From positions 64,001 to 128,000 of the forward strand of contig CAZNTG010000006.1 in assembly GCA_964575955.1 (NCBI GenBank): DNA of 64,000 nt. The letters are read 5' to 3'. The notes below the pieces were generated by a model. It was not told the DNA's origin. It saw only the letters and a list, made by a program, of their open reading frames with translations, and made no database searches. Made by a program: the position numbers and the translations under genes. Position 1 is the first letter of the stretch, and the number at the start of each line of letters is the position of its first letter. This stretch comes from an uncultured Thermoproteaceae archaeon (lineage in GTDB: Archaea > Thermoproteota > Thermoprotei > Thermoproteales > Thermocladiaceae). Shown here piece after piece: positions 2,054 through 57,200 of this stretch.

Positions 2054-3901
2054 GTGACAAGTCTAACAATGAATATAGTAGATGTCGATAGTGGAAAGAT
2101 TGAAAAACTTCAAATAGATTTTAAAGATATTAGAAAGTTAATACACCCAACATTAATAATGTATAAGATATCTAAAGATCTAAATCTTAAGAATATACTA
2201 GCAATACTTCAACATCCATCAAAGCTATTTAAAATTCCTGGAACAACATCAATATACTTAATAGATATTGAAAATGATAAGATTAGCTGTGTTAGAGCAC
2301 TTGTAGGAAATATAGATTTTAAACATAAGTTCTTTGGAATATTATTCAAAGATAGGAAGCCTTCAACAATAACTATAGAAGATGATAAAATTCTATTTAA
2401 TGAACCTAAAGATAAAGATCAATATGCTAAGATAGTTGTAGATAAGGATAGATTAACTACAGACATATTTTCAATAAAGCACAATCTAAATATTGACAAA
2501 TTCGAAATATATGTTAAGAAGAGTATTAACGATTCTACAGATGTAGATATTGATAGAGAGTTTATTAGAAAAATAGAAATTCTATATAAATACTCACCAA
2601 TCATCGGTGAAGACTCTCCGGTCAGAAGACATGGTCTAAAAGCAATTATTAATAAGTTAGTTGGTTTAGAACTTAGAGAAGATGTTAAGACTAATATTGA
2701 AAATGTTAGAAGTGATTTAAGATTTTGCTGTAATTACTGTGATGTGTCTTGTCTTAATTCTATATATAACTATAATATTTTTTATTATGACTATATGTAT
2801 AGTATTATTCAAGATTTTGTATATGATAACGATCTTTTAAGTAGATTGAAGTCTAGTTGTGACGATCTTTTCTACATAGTACAGATGTTGTATATGTGTA
2901 GATTTAACTATCCTGAAAAGCTTGAGAAAGGTTTTGAGAAACCTAGTTCTAATCTATACTACTCTATAAGTATGCTTGGTCTATGTCCATTATGTATGTT
3001 ACTCTTCTCTAAGTCTAGAGATTTCAATATTGATATACCTATACAAATTTTGAAATATCTATACAAAATTGATGTTAAGTTAGACGATTTTATTAAGATT
3101 ATTGAAAAGTTCAGGCCAACATTTAGATTTTCTATAATGTTGAAGAATGTTGAAGATATTTTGAAGATTATGTATCAATTTAATGATGTTGATAAACCTG
3201 TCAATTATATTCATCCTAACTCTATTCTTAGAGATAGGAAAGTTCAGGTTGCTATTGATGTAGTTGATGTCCCTGAGCGTATTATTGATATTGCTTTTAC
3301 ATGTATATCTTCTGGAATTGATATTGTTGAAGTAGGTACACCATTATTGAAGTATTATGGAGTTAAGATTGTGGAGTTGTTGAGATCTAACCTTCCTGAG
3401 GGTACTATAATATTTGCAGATACAAAAACTATGGATGTTGGTGATCTAGAGGCAAGAATTATGTATATACATGGTGCTGATATGGTATCTACAATGGCTA
3501 TTGGAACATTATCTAAAATTAAGGAGGCAATATTTGAAGCTGCAAAATTTGACAAGATTCTACTTATAGATTTAATGCAGTGTGAAAATCCTATAAGAAA
3601 GATAGAGGAAATGAGAGAAATTCTCGAAAAAGCATATCCGTGGATAATCATATGTGTTCATAGAGGAATAACAGAGCAGATAAGAGGAATGGGTATTGAG
3701 TCAGATATAGATCTTATCAGAAAGATTAGAGAGATCTTACCTAAAGAGATACCACTAGCAGTTGCTGGAGGAATAAAGTTGGGAATAGCTAAGAAAGTTG
3801 TAGATGCAGGAGCAAATATTGTTATAGTAGGTGCAGCAATATACACATCTAGAGATATTGGAGAAACAGCTAGAAAGATTGTGAAAGAAGTTAAGTCTTA
3901 A
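2054..3901 (+). CDS. hps: 3-hexulose-6-phosphate synthase (C-terminal ~220 aa) fused to a ~395-aa degenerate AOR-like domain
   Basis: From nt 3242: VQVAIDV, IVEVGTPLLKYYG, FADTKTMDVGDLEA, AVAGGI, IVGAAI match the HPS/KGPDC family. The N-terminal part has C-x2-C-x3-C and LGLC. Confidence 0.8.
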   Translation: MTSLTMNIVDVDSGKIEKLQIDFKDIRKLIHPTLIMYKISKDLNLKNILAILQHPSKLFKIPGTTSIYLIDIENDKISCVRALVGNIDFKHKFFGILFKDRKPSTITIEDDKILFNEPKDKDQYAKIVVDKDRLTTDIFSIKHNLNIDKFEIYVKKSINDSTDVDIDREFIRKIEILYKYSPIIGEDSPVRRHGLKAIINKLVGLELREDVKTNIENVRSDLRFCCNYCDVSCLNSIYNYNIFYYDYMYSIIQDFVYDNDLLSRLKSSCDDLFYIVQMLYMCRFNYPEKLEKGFEKPSSNLYYSISMLGLCPLCMLLFSKSRDFNIDIPIQILKYLYKIDVKLDDFIKIIEKFRPTFRFSIMLKNVEDILKIMYQFNDVDKPVNYIHPNSILRDRKVQVAIDVVDVPERIIDIAFTCISSGIDIVEVGTPLLKYYGVKIVELLRSNLPEGTIIFADTKTMDVGDLEARIMYIHGADMVSTMAIGTLSKIKEAIFEAAKFDKILLIDLMQCENPIRKIEEMREILEKAYPWIIICVHRGITEQIRGMGIESDIDLIRKIREILPKEIPLAVAGGIKLGIAKKVVDAGANIVIVGAAIYTSRDIGETARKIVKEVKS

Positions 3902-6280: not shown

Positions 6281-6331
6281 AGTGATAATGTATTTAAAAA
6301 TCTTAAATATATTACTACTGAACTAGAAGTT

Positions 6332-30010: not shown

Positions 30011-30922
30011 ATGGTTAAGATTGGAATACTTACAAGAAATCCAAATGGATGGGCAACACAACAACTTAGAAAAGCCGCACTCGAACTTGGATATCAAATA
30101 ACAACATTTAGATTTAGAGATCTATCAGTTAAGATTGAGAGTGATAATGTAGAAGTATATTTTAGAGACACTAAGTTGAAAGATGTTGTAGATATTGTAC
30201 TTGTAAGACCAATAGGTAAGTGTAGTCTTGAACAGGCAATATATAGGATGGATCTACTACACTTAATTAAAGAACTTGGAATATATGTTATAAATGATCC
30301 TAAAAGTATAGAAATTGCAATTGATAAATTTAGAACATTATACATACTTGCTTTAAATGGGTTAAAAGTTCCATATACAATCGTTACAGAGAATGAGTAT
30401 AGGATATATGATGTTGATAAAATTCCTGAAAGATTAATTATAAAACCTCTATTTGGATCGAGAGGACATGGAGTATTTAGCATATCTAATATGGGTAATG
30501 TAGAATATTTTAGAGATTTTATATGGAGAATATGTTTCTACCTAACTAGTATGAGGAGTGTAGTATATATTCAAGAACAGGTATCTACAAAAGGTGAAGA
30601 TTATAGACTTCTAGTAGTTGGTGATAGAGTTATAGCTGGTATGTTAAGAAAGTCTGAGGTTGGTTGGAAAACTAACATATCTGTAGGTGGTAAACCAATA
30701 CCTCTCAAGAAAATTCCTAAAGAAGTTGAAGATATGGCATTAAAGGCTTGTAAAATTATTGGTTGTGAAATTGCTGGTGTTGATATAATTAGAGGTGATG
30801 ATGATAATTACTACATACTTGAACTAAATACTCAACCTGGCTGGAGAGGTCTTCAACAATGTACTAATATTGATATTGCGAAAGAAATTATAAATTACTT
30901 AGCTGAGAAAGTTAAGAAATGA
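30011..30922 (+). CDS. RimK-family ATP-grasp alpha-L-glutamate ligase (MptN/CofF-like)
   Basis: DKFRT, IKPLFGSRGHG, DYRLLVVG, WKTNISVGG, AGVDI, ELNTQPGWRGLQ; 4-nt overlap with ftr. Confidence 0.88.
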   Translation: MVKIGILTRNPNGWATQQLRKAALELGYQITTFRFRDLSVKIESDNVEVYFRDTKLKDVVDIVLVRPIGKCSLEQAIYRMDLLHLIKELGIYVINDPKSIEIAIDKFRTLYILALNGLKVPYTIVTENEYRIYDVDKIPERLIIKPLFGSRGHGVFSISNMGNVEYFRDFIWRICFYLTSMRSVVYIQEQVSTKGEDYRLLVVGDRVIAGMLRKSEVGWKTNISVGGKPIPLKKIPKEVEDMALKACKIIGCEIAGVDIIRGDDDNYYILELNTQPGWRGLQQCTNIDIAKEIINYLAEKVKK

Positions 30923-31878
30923 TCACAATTGATGAAGTTTTAAGTAAGATAGATGACACGTTTGCTGAAGCATTTCCAATGTATGTGTCTAGAGTATTAG
31001 TCACTGCTGATAGTAGGAAGTGGGCACTTATAGCTGGTAAATTAGCTACAGGTTTTGCAACATCAATAATATTATCACCATGTGAAGCAGGTATTGAAAA
31101 GCTTGTAAGTTCAAAATCAACACCTGATGGTAGGGTTGGAGTATTATTACAATTTTGGCATAGTGATCTAACAAATCTAAAACTTCAACTGATATTAAGA
31201 TTAAGTCAGGTGGTCTTGACATGTCCAACAACTAGAGTATTTGATGGTCTTCCTAAAAGTAGAAGAAAATTCACAATTGGTAAAAGTATTGCAAGATTTG
31301 GAGATGGATTTGAATATGAAGCTGAGATTTTTGGAAGAAAAATGTGGATTATACCTGTAATGGATGGAGAATTCATGATTGAAGATAAGGTAGGAGTAGT
31401 TAAGGGTGTTGCAGGTGGTAACATAATCATACTAGGAAAAGATAGGAGAGGTACACTAGAAGCTGCGTATAGAGCAGCAAGAGCAATTCAAAGAGCAGGT
31501 CTTAGAGTAATACTTCCATTCCCAGGTGGAGTATGTAGAGCAGGTTCAAAACCTGGATCTAGAGTATATAAGAAGGTTAAAGCTACAACAAATCACCCGT
31601 TCTGTCCAACACTAAAAGATAAGATACAAGATACGAAACTTACAAAAGATGTTGAATGTGTATATGAGATAGTCATAAATGGACTTACTGAAAGAGATGT
31701 AAAAATTGCAATGGGTATAGCAGCAATAGTAGCATCAAAACATGAATCAGTGATTAAGATTACATGTGGAAACTATGGAGGAAAATTAGGACCATACAAG
31801 ATATTTCTAAAAGATGCTATTAAGGAAGCATTAGAAAACTATAGAGATTTACTAAATAGACTTACAACCTTAACATAA
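30919..31878 (+). CDS. ftr: Formylmethanofuran--tetrahydromethanopterin N-formyltransferase
   Basis: IDDTFAEAF, ATGFATS, CEAGIE, TPDGR, VLTCPTT, GVAGGN, GSKPGS, GNYGGKLG. Confidence 0.95.
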   Translation: MITIDEVLSKIDDTFAEAFPMYVSRVLVTADSRKWALIAGKLATGFATSIILSPCEAGIEKLVSSKSTPDGRVGVLLQFWHSDLTNLKLQLILRLSQVVLTCPTTRVFDGLPKSRRKFTIGKSIARFGDGFEYEAEIFGRKMWIIPVMDGEFMIEDKVGVVKGVAGGNIIILGKDRRGTLEAAYRAARAIQRAGLRVILPFPGGVCRAGSKPGSRVYKKVKATTNHPFCPTLKDKIQDTKLTKDVECVYEIVINGLTERDVKIAMGIAAIVASKHESVIKITCGNYGGKLGPYKIFLKDAIKEALENYRDLLNRLTTLT

Positions 31879-32393
31879 TCATCTAACGTATCAATATCAA
31901 TAATATCGTTAAGATCAAATATTGGTAAACTAGTCCAAGATAGCTCTTTACCAAAAATACACCTATCAGCATATACTAGACTAACATTACTAACACTACC
32001 ATCAACATAGCATAATGTAACGATATTGTAGTTAGATATCTTTAATGCATATTCTAGTGCTTTTATAAATTTTTCAAAGTTTATTATTACACAATCTCCA
32101 TTAACTATAAGTATTGGTTTTCTAATTATCGTGTTAATACACATACACATGTCAATACAGTAGTCAACTCCTGACATGACTATTATATCTACATACTCAT
32201 ATTTTCTCAATAATTCTATTAATCTTCTATGTCTTACAGATGTTAATACTACAATACTCTTGAATATATTTTTAAGTGTTTCAATTAAATATTCTATTAT
32301 TGTTTTATCTCCTATCTTTAGTAGATGTTTTTCAGGATTTCTTAATCTACTTCCTGATCCTCCAGCCATTATTACTACAATATTCAATCCCAC
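31839..32393 (-). CDS. NTP transferase (MobA/CobY-like)
   Basis: IMAGGSGSRL..EKHLL, NGD, DIDTLDD. Confidence 0.75.
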   Translation of the reverse strand: MGLNIVVIMAGGSGSRLRNPEKHLLKIGDKTIIEYLIETLKNIFKSIVVLTSVRHRRLIELLRKYEYVDIIVMSGVDYCIDMCMCINTIIRKPILIVNGDCVIINFEKFIKALEYALKISNYNIVTLCYVDGSVSNVSLVYADRCIFGKELSWTSLPIFDLNDIIDIDTLDDYVKVVSLFSKSL

Positions 32394-33592
32394 TTTCTTC
32401 TCAATTTTAGAAGATTTCTAGACATATCTTTAGGATATTTTGATAGTATTTTAGCAGCAGTACACATGTATAATGCTGTTTTTAAATCTTCTATAGAATT
32501 TCTAGTTTTTACACTAGCCTCAGTTGTTAATATTAGATCAATCTCAAGTTCTACAGCGATTGCTGAGAGAAGAGCATAAACACCATGAGGATCAACATCC
32601 ATCAACTCTACAACATTTCCAAAACCCATCAGGATCGGTCTATCTTTAAATAGTTCTCTAATATTTACATATCTACATATTGATTTTGATAAGTTGAATA
32701 TTGGAGGCTTAAGTAGAGGATCAATTATAGGTATAGCACCTCTAGATTCTAAATACTTAGAACAATATTCAAAATATGAATGTAGATAATTAATATCATC
32801 AGAATCTCTATCAGGAATTACGACAACACCAACATCTTTAATATTAAAATTCAACTTATCTAACATTCCTCTAGTAATACTTAAAATAAGGTCAACACCA
32901 GCTCTAACTCCAGCTTCAATTTCCTGTATCGATAAGGAGTCAACACTTATACCAACATTATCAGGAATCTCTCTGGATAACTCTCTAACAACTTCATATA
33001 CTCTAGCTGGATTAGGACTACCAGCAACACATCCAACATCTATAATAGAGGCACCTTCATCAACATATTTTAAAGCAATTTCAACACATGTATTTAGATT
33101 TATTCTAGTTGCATCAACAATCTCAGCAATTATTAGAGGAGGTAAACCATTAACTCTAAATCTAGATCTTCTACCAAACTCAGCTCTATAATATCTAACT
33201 CTATATGAGTTCTCTATAACAAAACTCTCAATGTATTCCTGATACTTAGATATTTTCTCATATAAATTTTTAATATCTCTAGGTATATCATTACAGTACT
33301 TTAAATACATTAATAATGCTGGAATATCACTAACATGTTTTAGATATATTACAGGTACATTATCTACTTTTATACTAAATCCATATGGAACTATCACTAG
33401 GTCAAACCTATCTTTAGAAATTTCTTTTCTAACAATATCTTCAATATACTTATCTGATAGAAATGATATTAATCCACCAGTCATGTTTAGATATTTCAAC
33501 TCTACATCACTTGGAAATATCTCTGGAAAAATATTTCTCAATTTCTCAAGAACTTCAATTCCAAACCTACCTGTAACTACTAGAATCTTCAT
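32384..33592 (-). CDS. Dihydropteroate synthase-like protein (methanopterin-pathway type)
   Basis: MKILVVTG, IIAEIVDA, GASIIDVG, ISVDSL, GFGNVVELMDVD, TTEASVKT, YPKD. Confidence 0.85.
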   Translation of the reverse strand: MKILVVTGRFGIEVLEKLRNIFPEIFPSDVELKYLNMTGGLISFLSDKYIEDIVRKEISKDRFDLVIVPYGFSIKVDNVPVIYLKHVSDIPALLMYLKYCNDIPRDIKNLYEKISKYQEYIESFVIENSYRVRYYRAEFGRRSRFRVNGLPPLIIAEIVDATRINLNTCVEIALKYVDEGASIIDVGCVAGSPNPARVYEVVRELSREIPDNVGISVDSLSIQEIEAGVRAGVDLILSITRGMLDKLNFNIKDVGVVVIPDRDSDDINYLHSYFEYCSKYLESRGAIPIIDPLLKPPIFNLSKSICRYVNIRELFKDRPILMGFGNVVELMDVDPHGVYALLSAIAVELEIDLILTTEASVKTRNSIEDLKTALYMCTAAKILSKYPKDMSRNLLKLRRKWD

Positions 33593-34521
33593 ATGAAGTA
33601 TGTTATAATTTTCTCAATCAATCTTCTTCCAAAAATCTTAACATTACCATAACCATAGACAGTAACTTGTGATACTGAAAACATCTCTATTGGAGCTTTA
33701 AGTAGAAATTCAGAGCCATAAGTTTTTACAAGTTCTATAAACGGTTTAGCATCTTCACTTGTTACACATCTGCTTAAAATATTTTCAACATCTTCTACAG
33801 TATCTTCATTTAGTAGTATTGATACAGTACCTGTATATCTAATTGAGTCATTACATGCAGCTATATTTGTAATATAGTCTTCTCTGACTGGTGGAATAAT
33901 ACAGGTCCCAATACCTGAATTTACTACGTCTAGATTTACATTATCTAAAATTCTCATTAATAAAACTTCAATAACTCTAGAACATATTTGCACCATCCCA
34001 GACATAGATTTTGATGATGTTAATATTATGTATATCTTATCATTCTGTATATTTGACATAATTTTATCTATAACATCTCTAGAAGGTTCTGATGGTGGTA
34101 TACACTCTACTATGTATATAGGCTTCCATTCAAAATCTTTAACATAACTTTCTAACTTCTCAAAGAATTTTCTAGGTTTTCTCAAAAGTACTTTTCCAGG
34201 TCCTGATATGTAGCATGTAGATTCACCACACTTTAAAGCCCATGTTGCTGATTGTGAACATAGACATGCTGTTACTGGATTGTCTGTAGTTATGTTGATC
34301 TGTAACATTGGTATGTTTTTCTCATGTATAATCTCTATATTAACTTCTGAGAGATTGTTCATAGATATTTCAGATATAATCTTACCAACTTCCAATCCTG
34401 TTTTTGTTACAATTCCTGTATCGATTATATATGCTCTATCTATCTTCTTTACATGTATTCTCAATCTATCTGACTCAGCTATAAGTTTTTCAACTAAATC
34501 TACTACATCTCCACATTTCAT
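33589..34521 (-). CDS. mch: Methenyltetrahydromethanopterin cyclohydrolase (divergent)
   Basis: TDNPVTACLCSQSATW, SGPG, GMVQICSRVIE, NDSIRYTG, KPFIE. Confidence 0.8.
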   Translation of the reverse strand: MKCGDVVDLVEKLIAESDRLRIHVKKIDRAYIIDTGIVTKTGLEVGKIISEISMNNLSEVNIEIIHEKNIPMLQINITTDNPVTACLCSQSATWALKCGESTCYISGPGKVLLRKPRKFFEKLESYVKDFEWKPIYIVECIPPSEPSRDVIDKIMSNIQNDKIYIILTSSKSMSGMVQICSRVIEVLLMRILDNVNLDVVNSGIGTCIIPPVREDYITNIAACNDSIRYTGTVSILLNEDTVEDVENILSRCVTSEDAKPFIELVKTYGSEFLLKAPIEMFSVSQVTVYGYGNVKIFGRRLIEKIITYFI

Positions 34522-35372
34522 TCTATCGGTTCTAATAATTTTTCTAGAGGTTTTATAATGTGTATGTTATGTTCATAATTTATTATCAATCTTCCTCTAC
34601 TTTCCATCAATACATCACCTATGAATATTGCAAACCTACCTTCAATCTTCCTACCTTTAAACTTTATTCCGCTAACTATCGAGTCTATGTAGAAGCTTGG
34701 TAATATTTCTTCAACTTTGCCTAAAATTATTATTCTACCACCAGACATTCTAGCTCCAGGGTATATGCCTGCATTTCCCATTATCAGGATATTTCCACCC
34801 TTCATACCATATCCAGCGAAGTCGTTTACATTACCTTCAATTATTATATCACCACTCTTCATACCATGACCTATGAATGATTCTGCATTTCCATGTATAA
34901 TTATTGTTCCACCTCTCATACCATGACCATACATCATCCCTATCAACTTACCTCCAACAAATGAGCCAGCATTACCGTAGACCTCTATCTTTCCATTCTT
35001 CATTAGTGAGCCTAGATAGTGATCTGCATCTCCATAGATTACTAATTCACCACCACGCATTCTATATCCTGCTAATGGGCCAACACTACCTCTAACTTCG
35101 ATTTTTCCAATACTCATTCTATATCCAACATATCTTAATCTTCTAGTTCCATCTCCTTCAAATATTATATCAATACCTTCTTTATCTTCCTCGATCCAAT
35201 ATTCAATATCAAATAATTCTTCAACTCCTGATTTTCTATTTCCAATCCATATCTGCAATTCTCTCAATACTTCTTTAATATCTCTATTGATAAATTTGTC
35301 TGGAATTATTTGTCTTACTTCAACAGGAACTTTAGGATCTTCTTTAAATTTAAATTTTATTACAATCTTCAT
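34518..35372 (-). CDS. fwdC: Formylmethanofuran dehydrogenase subunit C
   Basis: Repeated GxxMxxGxIxIxG beta-helix units; ILPSF; FIGD. Confidence 0.9.
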   Translation of the reverse strand: MKIVIKFKFKEDPKVPVEVRQIIPDKFINRDIKEVLRELQIWIGNRKSGVEELFDIEYWIEEDKEGIDIIFEGDGTRRLRYVGYRMSIGKIEVRGSVGPLAGYRMRGGELVIYGDADHYLGSLMKNGKIEVYGNAGSFVGGKLIGMMYGHGMRGGTIIIHGNAESFIGHGMKSGDIIIEGNVNDFAGYGMKGGNILIMGNAGIYPGARMSGGRIIILGKVEEILPSFYIDSIVSGIKFKGRKIEGRFAIFIGDVLMESRGRLIINYEHNIHIIKPLEKLLEPIE

Positions 35373-36559
35373 TTTTCAAAAAATGTTGATATTCTTCTAA
35401 TAGCTTCTTCAATTCTTTCAGGACTCTCTTTTGCGAAACACATCCTTACATGATATCTACCTGCTGAACCAAATGCAGAACCGGGAACTACTGCTACATG
35501 TACTTCTTCTAGTAGTCTATTTACAAATACTTCATCATCAATGTTTATCTTTTTCATATAGTTTGATAGATCTACAAACATGAATAATCCAGCTCTAGCT
35601 TTTACAGTCTTAGCTTCAGGTAGATATTTTAATATTGCTTGATACATTCTATCTCTTCTCTCTCTATATATTGGAATCACTTCCTGTAAATATTTAGATT
35701 TGTATTTTGTTACAAATAGTTTTGCTGCATATTGTGCTGGTGTTGGTGGATTTAGATTTACATACTGTATAACTCTTCCTAACTCTTTAACTATACTTTC
35801 ATGAGCAACTACATATCCAAGTCTCCACCCTGGAAGTGCAGCACCTTTAGACATTGTGTTTAGTGCAATTACATTTTCAAGATCTCTTCTAACTATGTAA
35901 TTATGCTCACCCTCGTAGTATAGTTCTCTATATGCTTCATCGTAGATTATGTAGAATTTATAATCTATAGCAAGATCTAGAATAGTCTTCACAAGTTCTT
36001 CACTAGCTACCCTACCTGTTGGATTATCAGGATTTACAAATATTAACATCTTAGTTTTTCTTGAAACTGCATTTTTAACATCTTCAATATCTGGTTCATA
36101 GTTATTATTAACAGATACAGGAATATCAACAACTTTAGCTCCAAAATACTCGGCTAATGGTCTATATAGCAGATATTCTGGATTAAATATTACAACTTCA
36201 TCACCTTCATCTATAAGTAGCATATATATTGCAAGTATTGCCTCACTAGAACCTGTTGTAAGTATTATATTTTCAATACCAATACTAGACTTACTATCTC
36301 TAGAGTAGTCCTCAGCTATTGCCTGTCTAACATCCTCAAGACCCATAGATGGTGTATATCTACTAAAGTTGAATGAGTCTCTCAACATCAAATCCTTCAA
36401 CTCCTCTAACAGCTCTCTACTTGGAGGAAGACCAGGTTGACCAATATGTAGTTCATACACATCTATACCAGTCTTCTTCAATTTAGCAACTTCAGATACT
36501 AGAAGTCTAATTTTAGAGCCAGGAAGTATATTCGCTTTTCGTGATAATGTTAATGGCAC
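35369..36559 (-). CDS. Class I/II PLP-dependent aminotransferase
   Basis: HIGQPG, NPDNPTG, DEAY, MSKGAALPGWRLG; 4-nt overlap with fwdC. Confidence 0.92.
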   Translation of the reverse strand: MPLTLSRKANILPGSKIRLLVSEVAKLKKTGIDVYELHIGQPGLPPSRELLEELKDLMLRDSFNFSRYTPSMGLEDVRQAIAEDYSRDSKSSIGIENIILTTGSSEAILAIYMLLIDEGDEVVIFNPEYLLYRPLAEYFGAKVVDIPVSVNNNYEPDIEDVKNAVSRKTKMLIFVNPDNPTGRVASEELVKTILDLAIDYKFYIIYDEAYRELYYEGEHNYIVRRDLENVIALNTMSKGAALPGWRLGYVVAHESIVKELGRVIQYVNLNPPTPAQYAAKLFVTKYKSKYLQEVIPIYRERRDRMYQAILKYLPEAKTVKARAGLFMFVDLSNYMKKINIDDEVFVNRLLEEVHVAVVPGSAFGSAGRYHVRMCFAKESPERIEEAIRRISTFFEK

Positions 36560-38003: not shown

Positions 38004-38867
38004 CTATTCATATAGAAATCTAACTATGACTACAGGATGGTGAGGAAAAATCTTCATAACTTGACACCACTTAACTAGTGTGTAATCTATAGCACCAACA
38101 TATCTAGCAGTCTCAAGAACAGTCCTTACAGGACTTTTCAAGTATTTAGAAATTCTCCTAGCTATATAAAATATTCTGTAAGGTATTAGAGATCTATGAC
38201 CTCTAAAATATGTAATTGTTGGGCATTTTATAAAAAGTTTATAACTTTTAAAACATTTAGCTAATACATATGTCAATACTCCAAGATTAATACATCCAGG
38301 AACGTGTACAGGTCTTGAGACAAGTACAATATTAAACTTCTTGATAATTATAGATAAATCACTATCAACAACACATATAGATAATAGTCTACATCTATGA
38401 TAAATCTCATCAATAATCTTCTTAATAATAGCGTAGCTGTCTCTAGATGGATAGGTTACGTAGAAGTATGGTAGTAGAGATGTATCAACACCACATGTAG
38501 ATACGGGTTTTAATATTGATAATAAGTTTTTACTAATTGAAGAACATAGATGTAGATGTCTTGCTAAGTCTATATCTCTAACATTACATAGAGATTCGTA
38601 GATATATTCTCTAAATAATCTTCTAAATAATCTACACCATACATATTTAAATATCTTCACATTTAATAGATCTATCTTAGATATCTTAATTAGAGATTCA
38701 TCATATATGAAACCTAGTGATGTTAATAGAGCTTTCTCAGATATGAATATTATCGTGTTTTTATGTTCAAATTTTTTAGCTATTCTTAATAACTTTTTAA
38801 CAATTCTATATCTATCTCTTGTAGGTATCCAATATCTACTTCTAATTCTAAATATCTTCACCTTCAT
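38004..38867 (-). CDS. CofE-like (coenzyme F420:L-glutamate ligase superfamily) protein
   Basis: IRSRYW, IFISEKAL, GVDTSLLP, VVDSD; last gene of the cofD-cofG operon. Confidence 0.65.
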   Translation of the reverse strand: MKVKIFRIRSRYWIPTRDRYRIVKKLLRIAKKFEHKNTIIFISEKALLTSLGFIYDESLIKISKIDLLNVKIFKYVWCRLFRRLFREYIYESLCNVRDIDLARHLHLCSSISKNLLSILKPVSTCGVDTSLLPYFYVTYPSRDSYAIIKKIIDEIYHRCRLLSICVVDSDLSIIIKKFNIVLVSRPVHVPGCINLGVLTYVLAKCFKSYKLFIKCPTITYFRGHRSLIPYRIFYIARRISKYLKSPVRTVLETARYVGAIDYTLVKWCQVMKIFPHHPVVIVRFLYE

Positions 38868-40035
38868 ACTTACGATCTACAAGACCATCTTCATCAACTA
38901 TGTTTAGAACTCTCTCACGTATTATATCTGAAAGCCATACTTTAGCATTTTTAATATATTTAGGATATATTGGTAATCTCTCTCTTAACATATATCCAAA
39001 ACTCTCAGTAACTTTTCTAATTTCACATATCTTCGGCCATCTATAGTCAATATTTATGTAGTCTGGAGTTATTGGAGATATTCCACCCCAATCATTAATA
39101 CCTGCTAGTATTAGAAGTCCAAAGCTTTCTGGATATAGATTTGGTGGTGATTGTATTGATGTTAAGTTTCTTACATATATCCTATATATCGATATTATTT
39201 TCATTATTTCATATATTGTAGGTCTTCTACAACATGTACATAGTCTCTCTGAAATACTACCTGGAGTGTATGGTTGTATTATTATTTCTTGAATATTATC
39301 AAAGTTTTCAAGAAGTTTTTTAGTCACTATTAATGTTCTAGCTCTATCTATAGAATCTTCACAAATACCTACCAATATTCCTGTTGTAGTTGCAATTCTC
39401 AGTCTATAGCAGTTGTATATAAATCTAAGCCTAATATGTGGCATTTTTGTACTTGATTCATAATGTGGCATACCTCTTCTATTCAATCTATATGATATAC
39501 ATTCAAGCATGAGACCTACACTTGCGACATATGGTTTTAAAAGTTTCAATTCTTCAAAACTTAGATAACCTATATTCAAGTGTGGAATAGCAAATTCAGT
39601 ATTTTTCAAAACCTTATCTAGAAATGTTATTACATACTCAATATAGTTTTTAAATCCCCACATCTTCAATCTATCTCTAACTTTTTCATATCTATCAGGT
39701 CTCTCTCCTGTACATACTAGAATTTCTTTAATTTTAAACTTCTTCTCCCACTTCTTAACTTTATGTACAATATCTTCAATATTCATAATATATGCTTCAG
39801 AACTTTCAGGATCTCTTCTAAAGTTACAATAGTAGCACTTGTTTGAACATATGTTTGTTAATGGTATGAAGACTTTTCTAGAGTATGTTATTATTTTTCC
39901 AAAATATCTATCTCTAATTTCACATGCTTTAGATATTAGTTGTAGAATATCTATGTAGTTACTATCTTCGAAAAGTTTAGCTATTTCAGACAACCCCGTA
40001 ATCTTCATCTCTTCAGTGCCCGTAGTTTTCATCAT
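38848..40035 (-). CDS. cofG: FO synthase subunit CofG
   Basis: ITYSRKVFIPLTNICSNKCYYCNF, ASVGLMLE, TTGILVGI, QSPPNL, DWGGISP. Confidence 0.93.
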   Translation of the reverse strand: MMKTTGTEEMKITGLSEIAKLFEDSNYIDILQLISKACEIRDRYFGKIITYSRKVFIPLTNICSNKCYYCNFRRDPESSEAYIMNIEDIVHKVKKWEKKFKIKEILVCTGERPDRYEKVRDRLKMWGFKNYIEYVITFLDKVLKNTEFAIPHLNIGYLSFEELKLLKPYVASVGLMLECISYRLNRRGMPHYESSTKMPHIRLRFIYNCYRLRIATTTGILVGICEDSIDRARTLIVTKKLLENFDNIQEIIIQPYTPGSISERLCTCCRRPTIYEIMKIISIYRIYVRNLTSIQSPPNLYPESFGLLILAGINDWGGISPITPDYINIDYRWPKICEIRKVTESFGYMLRERLPIYPKYIKNAKVWLSDIIRERVLNIVDEDGLVDRKYEGEDI

Positions 40036-40961
40036 ATTTCATTTAGTATCTTCTCTGCTAGTCTTATACAGTCTTTCTTATCTTTCATAACTATATTATC
40101 AATAATGACGTTAATCTTTCTTTCATATGCATACTCTATAACATCTTTATCAGAGAAATCACAGACTATGTGTGTTATATTAAATTTTGAGTATAGTTCT
40201 AAAATACCTTTTGAAGATCCTTCATATCCTATAGCTTCCATGAGCTTGTCTGTTACTCCACTTATAGGTCTGTTACCAATCATTGGTAACACACATATCT
40301 TAGGCTTATTCAACTTCCTGATAATGTCACCTATAGGATTTGTATAGAGTATTGGTAGTATACTTACAGGTGGGCTACTTGGACCTATTATAACTATGTC
40401 AGATTTTTCTAAAAACTTTATAGCTTTAATACATGCATATGCATTTTCAATACCTTCAAATCTTATTGATATTGGTTTTAGACTTTTACAATATTTAACT
40501 ACAAACTCTTGAATATTTAATTCTCCAATTTCTGTAAGTATCATTGTTCTAACTCTACAATCTGTCATTGGTGATATGTTTGTAGGTATTCCCAATCTTG
40601 TACATACGTAATCACATATATTTGAAAGTTTATAACCTTTCTTAAGTAGGTATGTCCTAAGTATGTGCATTGCTAGATCTCTATCACCAATATTAAACCA
40701 AGTATCTTCAAGACCAAGTATCTTTGCCTGATTTAGAAAGTTGAATGTGTCTTCACGTATACCCCACATCTTGTCTAAGTCAAGCATTCCTGATAGTGCA
40801 TATATTACTGTGTCTAAGTCTGGAGATATGTAGAGACCATTCCACTCAAAATCATCTCCAGTATTCACAATTATGTATACATTATTGATACCCAACACCT
40901 CTACTAATCCAAGTAGAAGCTTTACGCCTCCTGTACCTCCTGTTAATAATGTCACTTTCAT
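40032..40961 (-). CDS. cofD: 2-phospho-L-lactate transferase CofD
   Basis: LTGGTGGVKL, NTGDD, ISPDLDTV, IGDRDLA, IGPSSPPVSI. Confidence 0.93.
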   Translation of the reverse strand: MKVTLLTGGTGGVKLLLGLVEVLGINNVYIIVNTGDDFEWNGLYISPDLDTVIYALSGMLDLDKMWGIREDTFNFLNQAKILGLEDTWFNIGDRDLAMHILRTYLLKKGYKLSNICDYVCTRLGIPTNISPMTDCRVRTMILTEIGELNIQEFVVKYCKSLKPISIRFEGIENAYACIKAIKFLEKSDIVIIGPSSPPVSILPILYTNPIGDIIRKLNKPKICVLPMIGNRPISGVTDKLMEAIGYEGSSKGILELYSKFNITHIVCDFSDKDVIEYAYERKINVIIDNIVMKDKKDCIRLAEKILNEI

Positions 40962-50581: not shown

Positions 50582-51640
50582 TTGATGATAATACTGATTA
50601 GGAAAATATTGAGAAGAATTGTAAAGATTATTAAGAAGAATAGAGTACTAATCTCAATACTAATATTTATAGTAGTTACAATAATTAATGGAGCACTATT
50701 CTACTATGCAGAACATGTAGTTGGTGGTAATAGAAATTTAACACTCTTCAAAGCACTATATTGGGCTATTGTTACTGCAACAACTGTGGGATATGGTGAT
50801 ATTGTTCCTAAGACATTTCTAGGACATGTAATAACTATAGAGACAATATTTGTAGGTATTGCAACATTTACAATCATGGTTTCACTAATAGCAGAAGCAT
50901 TTATAAGTAGGACGATCAGGGGAATGTTTGGTCTTGGAAAAGTGAGAAAGACAGACGTCCTAGTTATAGGGTATGGAGAGATTTGTAAAGAAGCTATTGA
51001 TGAGTTAAAGATGAATAGACCAGACTACAGGATTACATGGCTTGTAGAGAGAAGACCTAGAGAAATTCCTGAAGATGTTGAATATGTTGTTGGTAATCCA
51101 ACAGATCCAACAACACTTGAGAGAGCTGGTGCTAGAACTGCTAGATATGTGTTAATATGTATGAGTAGCGATTCAAAAATTATACATACAGTACTCTCAT
51201 TGAGGAAGATTAATAAGAAAGCTAGAATTGCAGCAATTGCATGGTCTAAGAGAGCTCAAGAACTTCTAAAAGAGGCTGGTGTTGCAATTGTAGTTCCATT
51301 GAGAATTATTGGTAGAATGCTTGCAAGTGCAGCATTTGAACCTGTAATACCAATATTTCTAGAACAGGCAACAACAATTAGAGGTGTTGCAGATCTTATA
51401 GAGGTTGATGTTGATGAGAAGTTTGAGGGTAAGAGTATTAGAGATCTAGTATCTAGATTAGAGTCTAGTGAAGGTAAGAGATTCATACCATTAATGCTAT
51501 GTCATAGTGATGGTAAGACAATACTTGCACCTAGTTGGGATCTAAAACTTGAACTTGGAGATAGACTACTACTATTGAAGATTAATGTCGAAACTACAGA
51601 TATTGCTAAGACTATAACTAGCGAACCTTCAACTTCTTAA
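50582..51640 (+). CDS. Potassium channel with RCK domains (MthK-like)
   Basis: Filter TTVGYGD between two TM helices; Rossmann VIGYGEI; GNPTD. Confidence 0.93.
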   Translation: MMIILIRKILRRIVKIIKKNRVLISILIFIVVTIINGALFYYAEHVVGGNRNLTLFKALYWAIVTATTVGYGDIVPKTFLGHVITIETIFVGIATFTIMVSLIAEAFISRTIRGMFGLGKVRKTDVLVIGYGEICKEAIDELKMNRPDYRITWLVERRPREIPEDVEYVVGNPTDPTTLERAGARTARYVLICMSSDSKIIHTVLSLRKINKKARIAAIAWSKRAQELLKEAGVAIVVPLRIIGRMLASAAFEPVIPIFLEQATTIRGVADLIEVDVDEKFEGKSIRDLVSRLESSEGKRFIPLMLCHSDGKTILAPSWDLKLELGDRLLLLKINVETTDIAKTITSEPSTS

Positions 51641-52352
51641 GTTCTTGAAGTATTGGTATCTCTCTCAACTTCTCAGGTGGAAGTTTCTCCCATATTATAC
51701 CTCTAGGTCTATCTTTCACTCTTCTAGTCTCTATAATTCTTGTAGGTGTTACTATGAGATCTACAGGTAGGTCAAATTCATCATATGGAATTTCAAAATC
51801 TGTCAATACTTGTAGATCATGTACTGTTGTTACTATGATTGTACTATAATCAACTTTACCACATTCTGAAAGTATTGCCCATTCAAGTTCTGCATAACCT
51901 TCACCTTTACCAAGTCTAATACCTCTAAGATCAACAGCTACTGAGCCAATAACTACTAAATCTACTTTTGGAAGATTCCAAGGTTTTACACTTATTCCCC
52001 ATCTATATGCTCCAGATATTGTTGATGCTTCTCTATATGCATATTTAGGTATTTTTGATGGATCTAGAAGTAGAAATCCATTCCTAATCCTAGGTGTTGG
52101 CATTATTAGGATCTTTCCCTGTTCAAGACATATCTCTCTAATTCTTCTTTGAGGACTGTCAGGGTTTACCTTAACAACTTTCGCATTTTTAAATATTTCA
52201 AGTTTTGCAAGATTTTCACATGCAATATCTGAACCTTCGAAGTTTGGAATTCTACCATATACAGGTCTTGGAAAAGTTGCAATATTCTTCTCCTCTAACA
52301 ATCTCCAAATTCTCCACCTAATCTCACTCTTTACCTTAGATATACTACTCAC
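51618..52352 (-). CDS. 5-formyltetrahydrofolate cyclo-ligase family protein
   Basis: [39 protein letters not shown]. Confidence 0.9.
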
Positions 52353-52357
52353 AGTAT

Positions 52358-53431
52358 GTGAGATACAACTTCAAAAATAATCTTAACTATATGCATAAGA
52401 TGTTTAAAGAAGAGCTTGGTAGAGATATTAGAAGAGCATTGATAATAGCTGCAGGTGGTGGAGGTGATTCTGTAGGTGCATTACATACATACATGCTATT
52501 GAAGAGAGAAAATGTCAGACCAATACTAGGTGCATTACCATGGGAAAGACTTAGCATAGATCCATGTCCAGGACCTGTACCATTACACATGTTTAAGAAT
52601 ATTGTAAAAAATATTGAAAATACTTTAGCAATTGTAAATTCTAAAACATTTGTTAAGAGATGTTATAAAGTATTTAAAATACAGCTATGTAATGTTTTAG
52701 AAGTTATTAATGATGTTGGAATTATATATAATGCATATAGACCTGTTAAAGATATTGCAAAGATAATATATGAATACTGTATTCAGGAAGGTATTGATCT
52801 AGTAGTTGGATCTGACTCAGGTGGTGATATTCTTGGTACAGGTTTTGAAGATACTCTACTGAGCCCACTTGCAGATTCATACACGATGTCTATACTTAAT
52901 GAACTTGATAGACTTGGAATATATGTAATTGTTGGAATATTTGGACCGGGGTGTGATGGTGAGTTAAGTAGGGAGGAAATTATGAGAAGATTTGCAAAAA
53001 TTGCTGAGAAAGGATATTATCTATTTCATGTAGGTATAACTCCAAGCATTGCTAGAGAAATGTTGAAAGTTCTTGAAAAAGCACATACTGAGGCAAGTAG
53101 ACTACCTGTAGAGGCATATTTTGGAAAATTTGGAGAATACTATATTAGGAGAGGTGAGAGAAAAGTTATTTTAGATATTACATGTTCAGGAACATACTAC
53201 ATGTATGCTAGAGGAATTCTTGAAATAACTAAACTACCTGAAATATTGAAAGATAGTTTAAACATTCTACATGCACGTGAAATATTGAATAAGTATGGAA
53301 TAGTTACAGAATTAGATATTGAGATTGAACTTATTAGAAGAGGATTAGCAACTAAGAAGATAACTGCAGAAGAATTTATGAAAATAGTGGAAGAGTTGAA
53401 AAGTAGGATTAGGAAAACGAGACTACTCTAA
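52358..53431 (+). CDS. DUF1152-family protein
   Basis: [31 protein letters not shown]. Confidence 0.8.
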
Positions 53432-54286: not shown

Positions 54287-57200
54287 TTACCTTTGTGATG
54301 GTGGTCCTAGTACTGATACTAATCTCTTTCTTCTCCAGTGCTGGTACTCTATCAATCCAATCACTATTATGATTATCACAATGAAGATTATCACAATCCA
54401 TAGTGCTATCTGCTGCCATGATACATAGCCAACGCCTGGCCACCACCATCCAGTTACTGGGACCTTAACCTTTAGCTCGTATGTTGTTGGCTTTGATATT
54501 TCTATTGTGTAGGTCTTAGACTTTACATTTCCTGGTGCTGTTGCCATTGCTACACATGTTATTGGTGTTGTAGCTACATTCTTTGGTAGTGGTAGTATGA
54601 AGCTTAGCTTACCTTTACCATATCCTGTGTATATTACCTTACCTCCATATGTACAGTTTACACTTATGGATGCTATGTTTAGTGGACTGCCGCTTGCACT
54701 GACTGCTAATACCTTCACTTCAGCTCCTGGTATTGTTATTACTGGAGTTACTACTGATGATGGTGTCAGCTCGTAGGTCTCTTCATATCCTAGTGGTAGT
54801 CCATTCACACTTAGAACTTTCACAACTAGCTTTGTTGCACCTAGTGCTGCTACATGTACTGGACTTACTGTTACTGTTCCACTACTGCCTGTTGTTAATG
54901 TCCATGTTGCTGCCTTAACAGTGGTTAGTGACTTCATGTTTGGAACTATGTATGGTCCATATGTTGCATATGTTACTGCTGGTACATACTCTGTAACTTC
55001 TACCTTAGCTCCAGCTAGCGGTTCTGTCACTACTCCTGGAACTTGTAGTTGTACTGTTACTGGTATCTTTAGATATGCTGTACTGACCTTAACAGTTGTT
55101 ACAAATACTGGGTTTGTTGATCCTCTCTGTAGGCTTAGTGGATAGTTTAGTAGTACTGGTACTAGGTATGTCTTACCTCCTGATGTTATTGGTATGAATA
55201 CGTCTACTAGTAGGTTGCTTGCTGGTACTGAGCTTACACTACCTGCAAATGCTGTTCTTATATCTCTAATTACTGCTCCTCCAGTACTGTTTAGTATTGC
55301 TGATGCGTAGAAGTATTGTCCTCCAGTTGCTGCATCCTTTACAACTACTACAGCATTCTTCAGTGGTAATCCTGTCTTTGTCAATACTTGTAGTACTAGT
55401 GAGTATACCCATGTGTATACTAGGCTTACATTCTGCTGTGCATTACCTAGCTTCTGTACATCTTCCTGCTTAGCACTATCATATATTACTATTGGTACTG
55501 CATATGAGCTAAATGATGCTACTGGTGCATCTCCTCTTGGTCTACATACTGTGAATAGATATCTTACATAGCTGTCATACCAGAATATCATTACTCTAGC
55601 ACCATATGGTAGTACTGATAGTAGACTGCCGTTTGGTCCTATGAATGTTATTGCCATTGGATGACATAGGTCTCTCGATACGTTGTCAAATACTACCACT
55701 GTGGCATTTACTATTGGTTTACCATTCCATCCAAATACCTTGCTTAGGCCGTATATTGCTTCTGGTCCTAGGAATAGCTTACCTACAGGTACCCATCCAC
55801 CACTTACTGACATGACCTTAACCTTAACTCCTAGCTTGTTCACTCTAATTACTGCTGGTTCTCTATATACTGTAAATGCGTAGTATATGTCTGATCTTGT
55901 TGTCCAGTTAATAGCTATCTCATACTTCACTAGCTCGTCTGGTGTTACAACTATCTTCTTCATTGTTGGTGTGTAGAATGTGTAGCTTGGTGGCCAGTAC
56001 TTGTATGCTATCTTTGGCTCTGGTACATATTCTACAAACATCTTACTCTTGTATGTTAGGCATGGTACTGCATCAGCATTTACTAGGAATGTTGGTCCTA
56101 GTAGGTATGCTATTTCACCTGTCTTGTTAGTCTTGCTTGGTAGTACTAGTGGCTTTGTTGTTGACTTTACAACTATGTCAAATGTGTTGTTGTTGTAGAA
56201 TCTTATCAATGTTTCAGGTATTGAGTTTAGTGTTACTACACTTGGCATTACACCTACACTGAATAGTTTCTCATTCTTTGTTGCGTAGTTGTATATTAGT
56301 GTTGATGTTGCACCTGTTAATGGTCCTAGTGTTATTGCTTTACGCTCAACTACGTCAGCCTCACCTGTTAGTCCAACATATACCTTGCTTACGTTTACAT
56401 TCATTCTTGCAAAGTTTAATAGTGCGTATGTGCGTGGCTTAACTATTAGGTATGGTACTCCACTTACCTCAGACACATTAATGCCGAAGTACTCTCTTGA
56501 ACTGAATGGTCCACATGTCCAGTATCTACATACTACTACGCCACTGCTTGTTGGGAAGCATGTTATGTTACGTTCTACATATCTTGGAGTCTCGTTAATT
56601 ATGTATATTCTTGCTATATGAGCACCTCTCAATACGTTTGTTGTTATTGTCCACTCTGGTAGTGGTATTCTCACTACACCATTGTCAACATTTACTAGTA
56701 GTAGTAATGGACTTCCGAAGTAGTATCTCCATGCTGTGCCAGGTAGTAGCTTCTCTAGGTATAGTGATGTTGTCTCTACTGTTCCGTTTGGTAGTTGTAG
56801 TACACGTACTTCTGTCTCAGTAATGTTGAATGGTGTTCCACGCCATATTCCTGCAGTTATGTTCAATGTTCCGTATCCTGTACCGTTAACCCATATAATT
56901 ATCTTGACTCTCTTCTCAATATCGTAAATCTTACTATGATTTACAGGTACTAGCATTACTAATACTCTTGGTGTCTGTAGAATCTTCTCAACAGCCTTAG
57001 TGATGTTTACTGGTGATACTAGTACTACTCTCTTCAACTCACCTCCAGATGTGTATTCTGCTATCATTGATACTGTCAAGTTAGTTATCTCATATAGATC
57101 ACTTGCATTAACCATCAAGTATAGTGCTCCAATATCATACTTGAACACGTTTCTAATAATTAGCTTCTTCTTCTCAACCTTACTTAATGATAGTGATACT

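Follow-up and report, generated by a model that had tools for sequence, protein, structure and literature searches.

The stretch of DNA analysed here (the window; 64,000 nucleotides, G000:C6:64001-128000) comes from a metagenome-assembled genome (MAG) of an uncultured hot-vent archaeon and carries, at positions 30,011 to 36,559, a compact cluster of genes for one-carbon (C1) metabolism based on the carriers tetrahydromethanopterin (H4MPT) and methanofuran, together with an F420 operon (CofD/CofG/CofE-like) located 1.4 kb away. The assembly has 15 contigs totalling 1.52 Mb; its completeness is 94.7% and its estimated contamination 0.53%, the GC content lies at 32-38% per contig, and the cluster is found on a contig of 621 kb. 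Because of its nearest Ftr (formyltransferase) loci and nearest named aminotransferase homologues, the genome is placed in an uncultured genus of the Vulcanisaeta/Caldivirga family; the Ftr loci in question belong to MAGs labelled 'Thermoproteota archaeon' (79-82% identity), 'Thermoproteales archaeon' (73%) and 'uncultured Thermoproteaceae archaeon' (66%). The open reading frames (ORFs) of the window, namely those of the cluster and those of at least 120 aa elsewhere, were scanned with Pfam and NCBIfam, which gave the following picture of the cluster and the F420 operon.

30011..30922, plus strand: RimK-family ATP-grasp alpha-L-glutamate ligase, 303 aa (TIGR00768, 180.6 bits; cut-off 143.4)
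30919..31878, plus strand: Ftr, formylmethanofuran:H4MPT N-formyltransferase, 319 aa (NF002554, 378.6 bits; cut-off 297)
31839..31878: convergent overlap of the 3' ends of ftr and the NTP-transferase gene, 40 nt (from the ORF coordinates)
31839..32393, minus strand: small MobA-like nucleotidyltransferase (NTP-transferase), 184 aa (PF12804, 41 bits)
32384..33592, minus strand: DHPS-like pterin-binding protein of the TIGR00284 type, 402 aa (TIGR00284, 163.4 bits; PF00809, 41.7 bits)
33589..34521, minus strand: Mch, methenyl-H4MPT cyclohydrolase, 310 aa (PF02289, 182 bits; cut-off 25)
34518..35372, minus strand: FwdC, formylmethanofuran dehydrogenase subunit C, 284 aa (TIGR03122, 220.9 bits; cut-off 130.65; PF01493 GXGXG)
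35369..36559, minus strand: class I/II pyridoxal phosphate (PLP) aminotransferase, 396 aa (PF00155, 212 bits; no NCBIfam equivalog reached)
38004..38867, minus strand: divergent CofE-like protein (F420:glutamate ligase family), 287 aa (ESM Atlas)
38848..40035, minus strand: CofG, F0 synthase subunit (NF004884, 325.1 bits; cut-off 209)
40032..40961, minus strand: CofD, 2-phospho-L-lactate transferase (PF01933, 146.4 bits)

The ORF coordinates agree exactly with a preliminary description made from the letters alone, which had read here seven ORFs in two convergent operons with a 3' overlap of 40 nt (31878-31839+1 = 40), and the gene identities that it proposed are supported by Pfam and NCBIfam. 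All seven ORFs of the cluster are intact, neighbouring genes overlap by 4-10 nt inside each operon, and the aminotransferase is the first gene of the minus-strand operon. The convergent overlap is kept, at 34 nt, in congener G004 (L105: Ftr at 5157-6110 on the plus strand, NTP-transferase at 6077-6628 on the minus strand). Short contigs of near-identical sequence, from the independent DNA run X2, cover Ftr, its overlap with the NTP-transferase gene, the DHPS-like gene, Mch, FwdC and the aminotransferase; one of them extends over 31713-32018, crossing the 40-nt overlap with a single difference. Among RNA runs, none containing the cluster was found. Two read joints in X2 (32290>35338 and 32858>34475) were dismissed as chance, consisting of 21-22 matching letters of unrelated contigs.

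Ftr is further matched by TIGR03119 (349.9 bits; cut-off 292.6), PF01913 and PF02741, and shares 79-82% identity with its congeners and 53-60% with most other Thermoproteota. Of 32 models compared with the RimK-like ligase, that of MptN (tetrahydromethanopterin:alpha-L-glutamate ligase) scored highest, LysX (141.6 bits) and CofF (90.5 bits) being among those below it. The DHPS-like protein, presumed to act in methanopterin-type pterin biosynthesis, covers positions 1-394 of the 497 positions of the TIGR00284 model, about 100 C-terminal positions being missing, and the NTP-transferase gave weak matches to CobY and TIGR00454, far below their cut-offs. For the CofE-like protein no Pfam or NCBIfam match was obtained, even at E 10 and 0.1; in the ESM Atlas it resembles clusters of PF01996, with a feature score of 0.94, 221 shared features and a structure TM of 0.85. 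As had been described, HPS and F420 genes are present in the window, and no mcr, mtr, fwdA/B/D, mtd or fae occurs among its scanned ORFs.

Remainder of the pathway in the genome

Genes for the remaining steps were sought by six-frame family searches of the genome, followed by a scan of the neighbours of each match. These searches located the following genes, listed here by contig.

C3: FwdA, 707.5 bits, over the cut-off
C15: FwdB, 447 bits (six-frame family search)
C15: Mtd, 361.9 bits
C3: Mer, 370.6 bits (cut-off 348.7)
C9: CdhC (beta), Pfam 204.8 bits, and 624 bits in the neighbour scan
C7 and C8: MptG (RFA-P synthase), two copies
C6: MfnB, adjoined by MfnF/TIGR03123 (301.6 bits)

FwdB is part of a single FwdD-FwdB fusion of 638 aa (445.7 bits, over the cut-off) with a two-[4Fe-4S] ferredoxin-like insert at about residues 329-402 (G000:C15:2092-6858, L099), and its gene apparently shares an operon with Mtd, divergent from the gene of a CooS-type carbon monoxide dehydrogenase (CODH; 638 bits). 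On C9, CdhC forms an operon with CdhE (gamma, 521 bits) and CdhD (delta, 435/355 bits), each of the three being over at least one cut-off, and with CdhA (alpha), which together make up most of a Cdh-type CODH/acetyl-CoA synthase (CODH/ACS); the operon is followed by an FrhB/FpoF-like gene adjoining CdhA and then by a divergent gene for an AcsV-like corrinoid activase (399 bits). The carrier-biosynthesis genes found comprise the two MptG copies, MfnB and the MfnF-like gene, as well as CofG, CofD, the CofE-like and the DHPS-like genes of the window. The genome further encodes an ADP-forming acetyl-CoA synthetase (569 bits, over the cut-off), a NuoD-like protein and several [NiFe]-hydrogenase large-subunit-like proteins, two of them group-4-like. 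Matches to [NiFe]-hydrogenases lie at or near contig ends (both ends of C6, C1:863-1108 and C5:18339-18869), which suggests that at least two similar hydrogenase loci broke the assembly.

The genome-wide search proposed in the preliminary description thus recovered fwdA/B/D, mtd, mer, mptG, mfnB/F and cdh, and left fae and mcr without a counterpart: PF08714 (Fae) had no match in six frames of the genome, McrA none in the source genome or in 40 relatives (0/41), and MtrH none in the source genome, so that the organism is non-methanogenic by gene content, as had been supposed. We put at about three in four the probability that these genes make up a complete Wood-Ljungdahl pathway with H4MPT and methanofuran as carriers, lacking the methanogenic end (Mcr/Mtr). 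The suggestion that the cluster is a relic methyl branch did not hold up, FwdA, FwdD-B, Mtd, Mer, CdhA/C/D/E, the AcsV-like protein and CooS all being present and intact.

A second, diverged Ftr paralogue of 333 aa is encoded at G000:C7:100618-101619 (L101:6618-7619, plus strand). It is 36% identical to the Ftr of the cluster, scores 219.7 bits, under the cut-off, and occurs in all six congeners (72-77% identity); in G008 it is 49% identical and lies beside Ftr and CdhC.

Distribution among relatives and membership of the cluster

The occurrence of the pathway was determined in the source genome and 40 relatives (41 genomes), in which family f2 is represented mostly by single-contig genomes, and that of Mch also in a class-wide survey of 120 genomes from 39 genera. 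This revealed that (i) in the own genus (g1) Mch is found in 5 of 6 genomes and CdhC in 6 of 6, the sole genome without an Mch match being 69% complete, (ii) both genes are present in the only g3 genome (1/1 each) and in both g7 genomes (2/2 each), (iii) neither gene was found in g2 (0/6), g4 (0/4), g5 (0/7) or family f2 (0/14), the pathway being scarce among the well-assembled relatives, in line with the earlier remark that these enzymes are rare in cultured Thermoprotei, and (iv) class-wide, Mch occurs in 21 of 120 genomes and 11 of 39 genera, one of these genomes being G101 of g5. The gene order of the cluster is constant wherever the congener contigs reach, and the combination of Ftr and FwdC-Mch is frequent among MAGs labelled Ignisphaera, Desulfurococcaceae, Thermofilaceae, Culexarchaeia, Methanomethylicia, Nezhaarchaeales and Kor. 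Overall, the pathway appears to be standard in the genus and patchy in the order. The preliminary description had considered that the contig might belong to a lineage where the pathway is standard, which applies to its own genus and is echoed in uncultured Thermoproteota, where the pathway is common; it had also considered that the rest of the pathway might be absent, and this part fell away, the remaining genes being present.

The HpaB_N family, which includes 4-hydroxybutyryl-CoA dehydratase, shows the opposite pattern. It was matched in 12 of the 14 f2 genomes and 6 of the 7 g5 genomes, and in none of the own genus (0/7), g3 (0/1) and g7 (0/2), the three genera with CODH/ACS; within the sample G000-G040, g5, g6 and g8 have HpaB_N and are without CODH/ACS, and g4 has neither. 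A quick Ftr tree with 75 rows unites the genus in a clade (7 rows; 100% support) on a long stem, nested with weak support among other Thermoproteota, and such weak deep branches are compatible with vertical descent as well as with transfer within the phylum, which the tree cannot distinguish. A record titled Vulcanisaeta sp. JCM 14467 (L041) carries Ftr, FwdC and a RimK-like gene; its Ftr groups, with weak support, with that of Ignisphaera and not with that of the source genus.

The cluster was then compared with 73 Ftr loci outside the genus clade, with flanks of up to 6 kb, many of them ended by contig ends. FwdC is present in 49 of the 73 loci, and FwdC together with Mch in 39, the two being adjacent and on one strand in every case (39/39). 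A RimK-like gene occurs in 16 loci, in 11 of which it has Mch (7) or Ftr (4) no more than 500 nt away, and a CofE-like gene in 17 (within 500 nt of Ftr in 10). The DHPS-like gene was found in a single locus (1/73), the NTP-transferase in none (0/73), and likewise the aminotransferase (0/73), which adjoins FwdC only in the source genus. From these counts, FwdC-Mch is an old, phylum-wide module with the MptN-like ligase as a recurrent companion, and the aminotransferase and the NTP-transferase entered the operon only in the source genus.

Both of the latter genes have relatives where the pathway is missing: aminotransferase orthologues share 50-55% identity in Vulcanisaeta, Caldivirga and Thermocladium and 43-44% in Pyrobaculum, and NTP-transferase homologues of equal size (26-34% identity) were found in 7 of 7 g5, 4 of 6 g2 and 2 of 4 g4 genomes, all without Ftr/Mch. 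Because both have orthologues in relatives without the pathway, they are probably housekeeping bystanders that share the operon. Identification of the aminotransferase as MfnC was rejected in view of its close orthologues in lineages without Mch/CdhC and the absence of FwdC linkage in the 73 other loci, and a pathway-specific role of the NTP-transferase was rejected on account of its homologues in pathway-less relatives. Contrary to the reading of all seven genes as one C1 cluster, these two are thus probably not specific to the pathway. Strong matches to the DHPS-like protein (125-206 bits) were confined to the source genus (6/6) and G008, the other genera giving weak, generic DHPS-domain matches and g7 none (0/2), a distribution that lends partial backing to a pterin-related role.

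Divergence of Mch, proposed operation and rival explanations

Within the cluster, Mch stands out by its divergence. Its Pfam scores range from 155 to 193 bits in the genus, as against 307-439 bits in 13 full-length matches from other genera of the class. Between the window and 15 other lineages, the median identity is 56% for Ftr and 28.5% for Mch, giving an Mch/Ftr ratio of 0.51 (range 0.48-0.55), whereas 60 random pairs of other lineages gave a median ratio of 0.83 (range 0.60-1.02). For the pair G002 and G004, the non-synonymous divergence (dN) fell in the order NTP-transferase (0.384), Mch (0.278), DHPS-like gene (0.177), RimK-like gene (0.148) and Ftr (0.092); synonymous divergence (dS) was saturated (>1 or not computable) in every pair, which leaves as usable figures dN and, for this closest pair, a rough dN/dS of about 0.19 for Mch, with dN well under dS. 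By these measures Mch appears to evolve about three times faster than Ftr, yet under purifying selection, and Mch and the DHPS-like gene outpace Ftr, FwdC and the aminotransferase by a factor of 2-3 while still under such selection.

The best match of Mch in the Protein Data Bank (PDB) is 4gvq (E 3.3e-32, residues 7-291). The motif SRVIE described earlier corresponds to residues 181-185, in which the R..E pair is indeed kept as R182/E185, and E185 aligns with the column that differs (E vs Q) between 4gvq and 4gvr, which we take to be the E186Q active-site mutant of Archaeoglobus Mch. Among 30 columns invariant in 19 other Thermoproteota Mch, 21 are conserved in the protein of the window and 19 in all six sequences of the genus; among the conserved positions are Q90, W94, S106-G107-P108, E139, G175, Q178, R182, E185, D225, K275 and F281. 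Mch is also intact in five congeners. In G101, of the sister genus g5, Mch is split over two overlapping frames (C12:52022-52958), either by a frameshift or by a sequencing error. We read the Mch of the source genus as a probably working enzyme under relaxed or shifted constraint, and not as a pseudogene.

The two convergent operons would thus carry three core enzymes of the methyl branch, FwdC, Ftr and Mch, accompanied by an MptN-like ligase and a DHPS-like protein that would make or tailor the pterin carrier. In the proposed scheme, Fwd (A, D-B and C) would reduce CO2 onto methanofuran with reduced ferredoxin, Ftr would transfer the formyl group from methanofuran to the pterin (H4MPT), Mch would convert formyl- to methenyl-H4MPT, Mtd and Mer would reduce the C1 unit with F420H2, and CODH/ACS would join the methyl group and CO to acetyl-CoA. 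Electrons would come from hydrogenases via ferredoxin and F420, possibly from the group-4-like or other [NiFe]-hydrogenases and the NuoD-like gene product, and the FrhB-like protein encoded beside CdhA may connect the ferredoxin and F420 pools. The acetyl-CoA formed would enter biomass, or yield acetate and ATP via the ADP-forming acetyl-CoA synthetase, and the pathway would stand in for the dicarboxylate/4-hydroxybutyrate cycle of cultured relatives. The analysis establishes gene content, intactness, genus-wide conservation and purifying selection; that the pathway works, and in which direction, we infer, and we lean, by a modest degree, towards the reductive direction.

Several observations weigh against this interpretation. 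Four proteins fall short of the cut-off of the model that would name them: the RimK-like ligase with the MptN model NF040720 (225.6 bits; cut-off 350), the DHPS-like protein with TIGR00284 (cut-off 256.65), CdhA (607.7 bits; cut-off 781.3), and Mch with the NCBIfam equivalog TIGR03120 (173.6 bits; cut-off 228.8), the last in line with the contrast drawn in the preliminary description between a diverged Mch and a well conserved, clearly passing Ftr. CdhB (epsilon) was not recognised among the scanned neighbours of the cdh matches. The pathway genes are spread over C3, C6, C7/C8, C9 and C15, five contigs that all have a GC of 32-33%, so that correct binning is required. The unusual speed of Mch, the DHPS-like gene and the NTP-transferase could equally signal relaxed constraint, and the complementarity of CODH/ACS and HpaB_N is a hint drawn from a few related genera and from a family that also holds unrelated hydroxylases. 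Finally, a DsrA-like gene leaves room for an oxidative use coupled to respiration.

In that oxidative alternative, the complete pathway would run mainly in reverse, with CODH/ACS splitting acetyl-CoA and Mer, Mtd, Mch, Ftr and Fwd oxidising the methyl group to CO2; a respiratory acceptor or the evolution of H2 would take up the electrons. All steps of the pathway are reversible, and Archaeoglobus runs it oxidatively; the group-4-like hydrogenases could evolve H2, and the DsrA-like gene scores 274 bits, with a second copy at 111 bits. Passages of PMC12794621 also describe relatives in the family as known heterotrophs. The DsrA-like match, on the other hand, falls short of its cut-off (392.85), and the two copies are transcribed away from each other, unlike the genes of a dsrAB operon; moreover, CODH/ACS occurs in precisely the genera that gave no HpaB_N match, which fits carbon fixation. 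We regard an oxidative main use as unlikely, though it is the strongest of the competitors. A different use, put forward as one of two options in the preliminary description, is that Ftr, Mch and Fwd chiefly oxidise formaldehyde released by HPS in the reverse ribulose monophosphate (RuMP) pathway. The window does encode an HPS domain, and formaldehyde condenses with H4MPT non-enzymatically, which would make Fae dispensable; the AOR-like domain fused to HPS in this genus seems degenerate, so that another formaldehyde sink would be useful. Fae, nevertheless, was not found in the genome, and 39 of the 41 genomes have an HPS homologue, every lineage without Ftr/Mch being represented among them; HPS being present with or without Ftr/Mch, it therefore needs no such pathway. 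Besides, Mer, CODH/ACS and the corrinoid activase co-occur with Ftr/Mch in every genus that has them and would be superfluous for detoxification, and formaldehyde disposal as the main role is accordingly given little credence here.

Decay of the cluster into a relic, with an Mch that is no longer a working cyclohydrolase, would account for an Mch more diverged than in any other lineage sampled, for its low identity ratio to Ftr and for the split gene of G101. It is hard to reconcile with seven intact ORFs, with intact Mch in five congeners, with an Mch dN well below dS, with an R/E pair and 19 of 30 conserved positions kept in all six sequences, and with the intactness of all other pathway genes found, and we consider it very improbable. 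Less probable still is a binning artefact, in which the cluster would be genuine and the pathway genes on other contigs would stem from a different organism: the MAG does consist of 15 contigs and the pathway genes are scattered among them, but GC is 32-33% on C3, C6, C9 and C15, the contamination estimate is low, and independent MAGs of six congeneric species carry CdhC in 6 of 6 and Mch in 5 of 6. The reductive Wood-Ljungdahl pathway remains the reading that we prefer. Two further ideas concern its history and its carrier. The Wood-Ljungdahl pathway may be ancestral to the Thermoproteales; uncultured genera alone would have kept it, and in cultured genera the dicarboxylate/4-hydroxybutyrate cycle would have taken its place. 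More doubtful than this is the idea that the C1 carrier of the genus is a structurally modified methanopterin, in which case Mch and the DHPS-like protein would have co-evolved with the variable parts of the pterin, and the MptN-like ligase, the truncated DHPS-like protein and the NTP-transferase would be tailoring enzymes.

Non-methanogens of the Archaeoglobus and Bathyarchaeia type have Fwd, Ftr, Mch, F420-dependent Mtd and Mer and a Cdh-type CODH/ACS, and no Mcr. The source genome shares these components and the lack of Mcr with them; it differs in its fused FwdD-FwdB with a ferredoxin insert. The terminal metabolism of those organisms is sulfate respiration or acetogenesis. The bacterial module for H4MPT-linked formaldehyde oxidation consists of Fae, MtdA/B, Mch and the Fhc complex. 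Its Mch, Ftr (FhcD) and FwdA/B/C (FhcA/B/C) are homologous to those of the source genome, and a RimK-like gene is present in the Chloroflexia locus L090, but the source genome is without an Fae match and has F420-dependent Mtd, Mer and CODH/ACS, which that module lacks.

Closer parallels exist among the Thermoproteota. Berghuis et al. (bioRxiv 10.1101/391417; PNAS 2019), in the sections relevant here, described Ignisphaera MAGs with all Wood-Ljungdahl genes and without Mcr, and proposed possible carbon fixation, in contrast to the dicarboxylate/4-hydroxybutyrate cycle of Desulfurococcales and Thermoproteales. Like those genomes, the present one is a Thermoproteota MAG with an apparently complete pathway and no Mcr, and its Ftr is 55-59% identical to Ignisphaera Ftr; unlike them, it belongs to the Thermoproteales, Ignisphaera being of another order (Desulfurococcales). 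The gene order in Ignisphaera is Ftr, about 4.4 kb, FwdC-Mch and then RimK on the opposite strand, as compared with RimK-Ftr converging on the NTP-transferase, DHPS-like protein, Mch, FwdC and aminotransferase in the source genome, whose Mch is also much faster-evolving than the Ignisphaera type. Chistoserdova 2016 (PMC5020050) states, in the passages concerned, that Thermoproteales and Ignisphaera carry H4MPT/methanofuran C1 genes, and reads their patchy presence as recent loss; that report covers the same gene set in the same archaeal order, and our analysis goes beyond it with the entire pathway including CODH/ACS in one genus and with its distribution among 40 relatives. Excerpts of PMC11362583 likewise place the Wood-Ljungdahl pathway in diverse hot-spring MAGs. 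Our literature search returned no paper joining the Wood-Ljungdahl pathway with Thermocladiaceae.

The genus is thus a further example of a system already reported for related uncultured archaea and no new kind, because both H4MPT genes in Thermoproteales (2016) and complete pathways in Ignisphaera (2018/19) have been published. The general point has been made for Ignisphaera, Bathyarchaeia, Korarchaeia and others, and the practical value is modest; what is new is the genus-level distribution, the accelerated yet apparently constrained Mch and the recognition of two genes of the cluster as probable bystanders. Cultured Thermoproteales either employ the dicarboxylate/4-hydroxybutyrate cycle or live as heterotrophs. 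A sister genus with an apparently complete pathway and without a match to the 4-hydroxybutyryl-CoA-dehydratase family offers a data point on the exchange of carbon-fixation pathways within the Thermoproteota, and bears on whether the H4MPT pathway is ancestral to the phylum.

HPS fusion and other genes of the window

Two further genes of the window deserve a description, one at its left end and the other immediately upstream of the cluster.

2054..3901, plus strand: protein of 615 aa with an HPS domain (residues 396-609; PF00215, 91.9 bits) and an N-terminal domain of 395 aa
28364..30004, plus strand: CBS-pair/DUF294_C protein, 546 aa (Pfam CBS 90.6 bits, DUF294_C 28 bits)

The HPS domain scores 141.5 bits with TIGR03128, under the cut-off of 200. 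For the N-terminal domain, no match was found in Pfam (E up to 10; E up to 1 on four congeners), NCBIfam, PDB sequence and profile searches or the ESM Atlas. The top 9 Foldseek matches of its model in the PDB, at a pLDDT of only 58, were all of the aldehyde:ferredoxin oxidoreductase (AOR) family (E 1.3e-3 to 4.7e-2). In relative G008, the HPS part is fused to intact AFOR_N (272 bits) and AFOR_C (300 bits) domains in a protein of 829 aa (L117:751-3240, minus strand); an hhalign comparison of the N-terminal domain with this AOR part gave weak support, with a probability of 19% and an E of 0.0012 over 62 columns. A C-x2-C-x3-C motif and a later Cys of the short domain can also be aligned with the AOR part. 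Because of the fusion context and the Foldseek matches of the low-confidence model, the domain appears to be a shortened, degenerate remnant of an aldehyde:ferredoxin oxidoreductase.

Full-length homologues of the fusion occur in 4 of 6 congeners, and in a fifth the N-terminal part is present as a fragment apart from the HPS part; nearly all relatives have HPS homologues that stand alone, with a length of about 220 aa. Of 50 protein clusters returned for the fusion, 43 have the AFOR_N+AFOR_C+HPS architecture, with 696-835 aa (mostly about 800-830 aa) and some Bathyarchaeia and Hadarchaeota among them; six are of the short form (608-617 aa) and one has AFOR_C and HPS only. In relatives, the fused tungsten enzyme probably acts directly on the formaldehyde that HPS releases, which would then not be oxidised via Fae/H4MPT. 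Literature searches found no description of an HPS/aldehyde-oxidoreductase fusion, the passages checked mentioning only Fae-HPS and HPS-PHI. The AOR-HPS fusion, intact in many archaea, suggests a direct, ferredoxin-reducing formaldehyde sink of the reverse RuMP pathway.

Divergent from the HPS fusion gene lies a gene for a B12-binding radical SAM protein of the TIGR04013 (MJ_1487) family (688-1998, minus strand; 384 bits, over the cut-off), and a second TIGR04013-like gene is found near corrinoid biosynthesis genes on C3. The CBS-pair/DUF294_C gene ends 7 nt upstream of the RimK-like gene, with which it is probably co-transcribed, and at the equal position its product is 73-74% identical in the congener loci L017-L019 (L105 being the L019 contig) and 37% identical in L020. 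At 54287-61570 on the minus strand there is an ORF of 2427 aa without a Pfam family at E up to 1e-6. At 51618-53431, two genes diverge from each other, one of the 5-formyltetrahydrofolate cyclo-ligase family (105 bits) and the other of DUF1152 (281 bits); that the product of the former might act on a formyl-pterin in an H4MPT organism is speculation.

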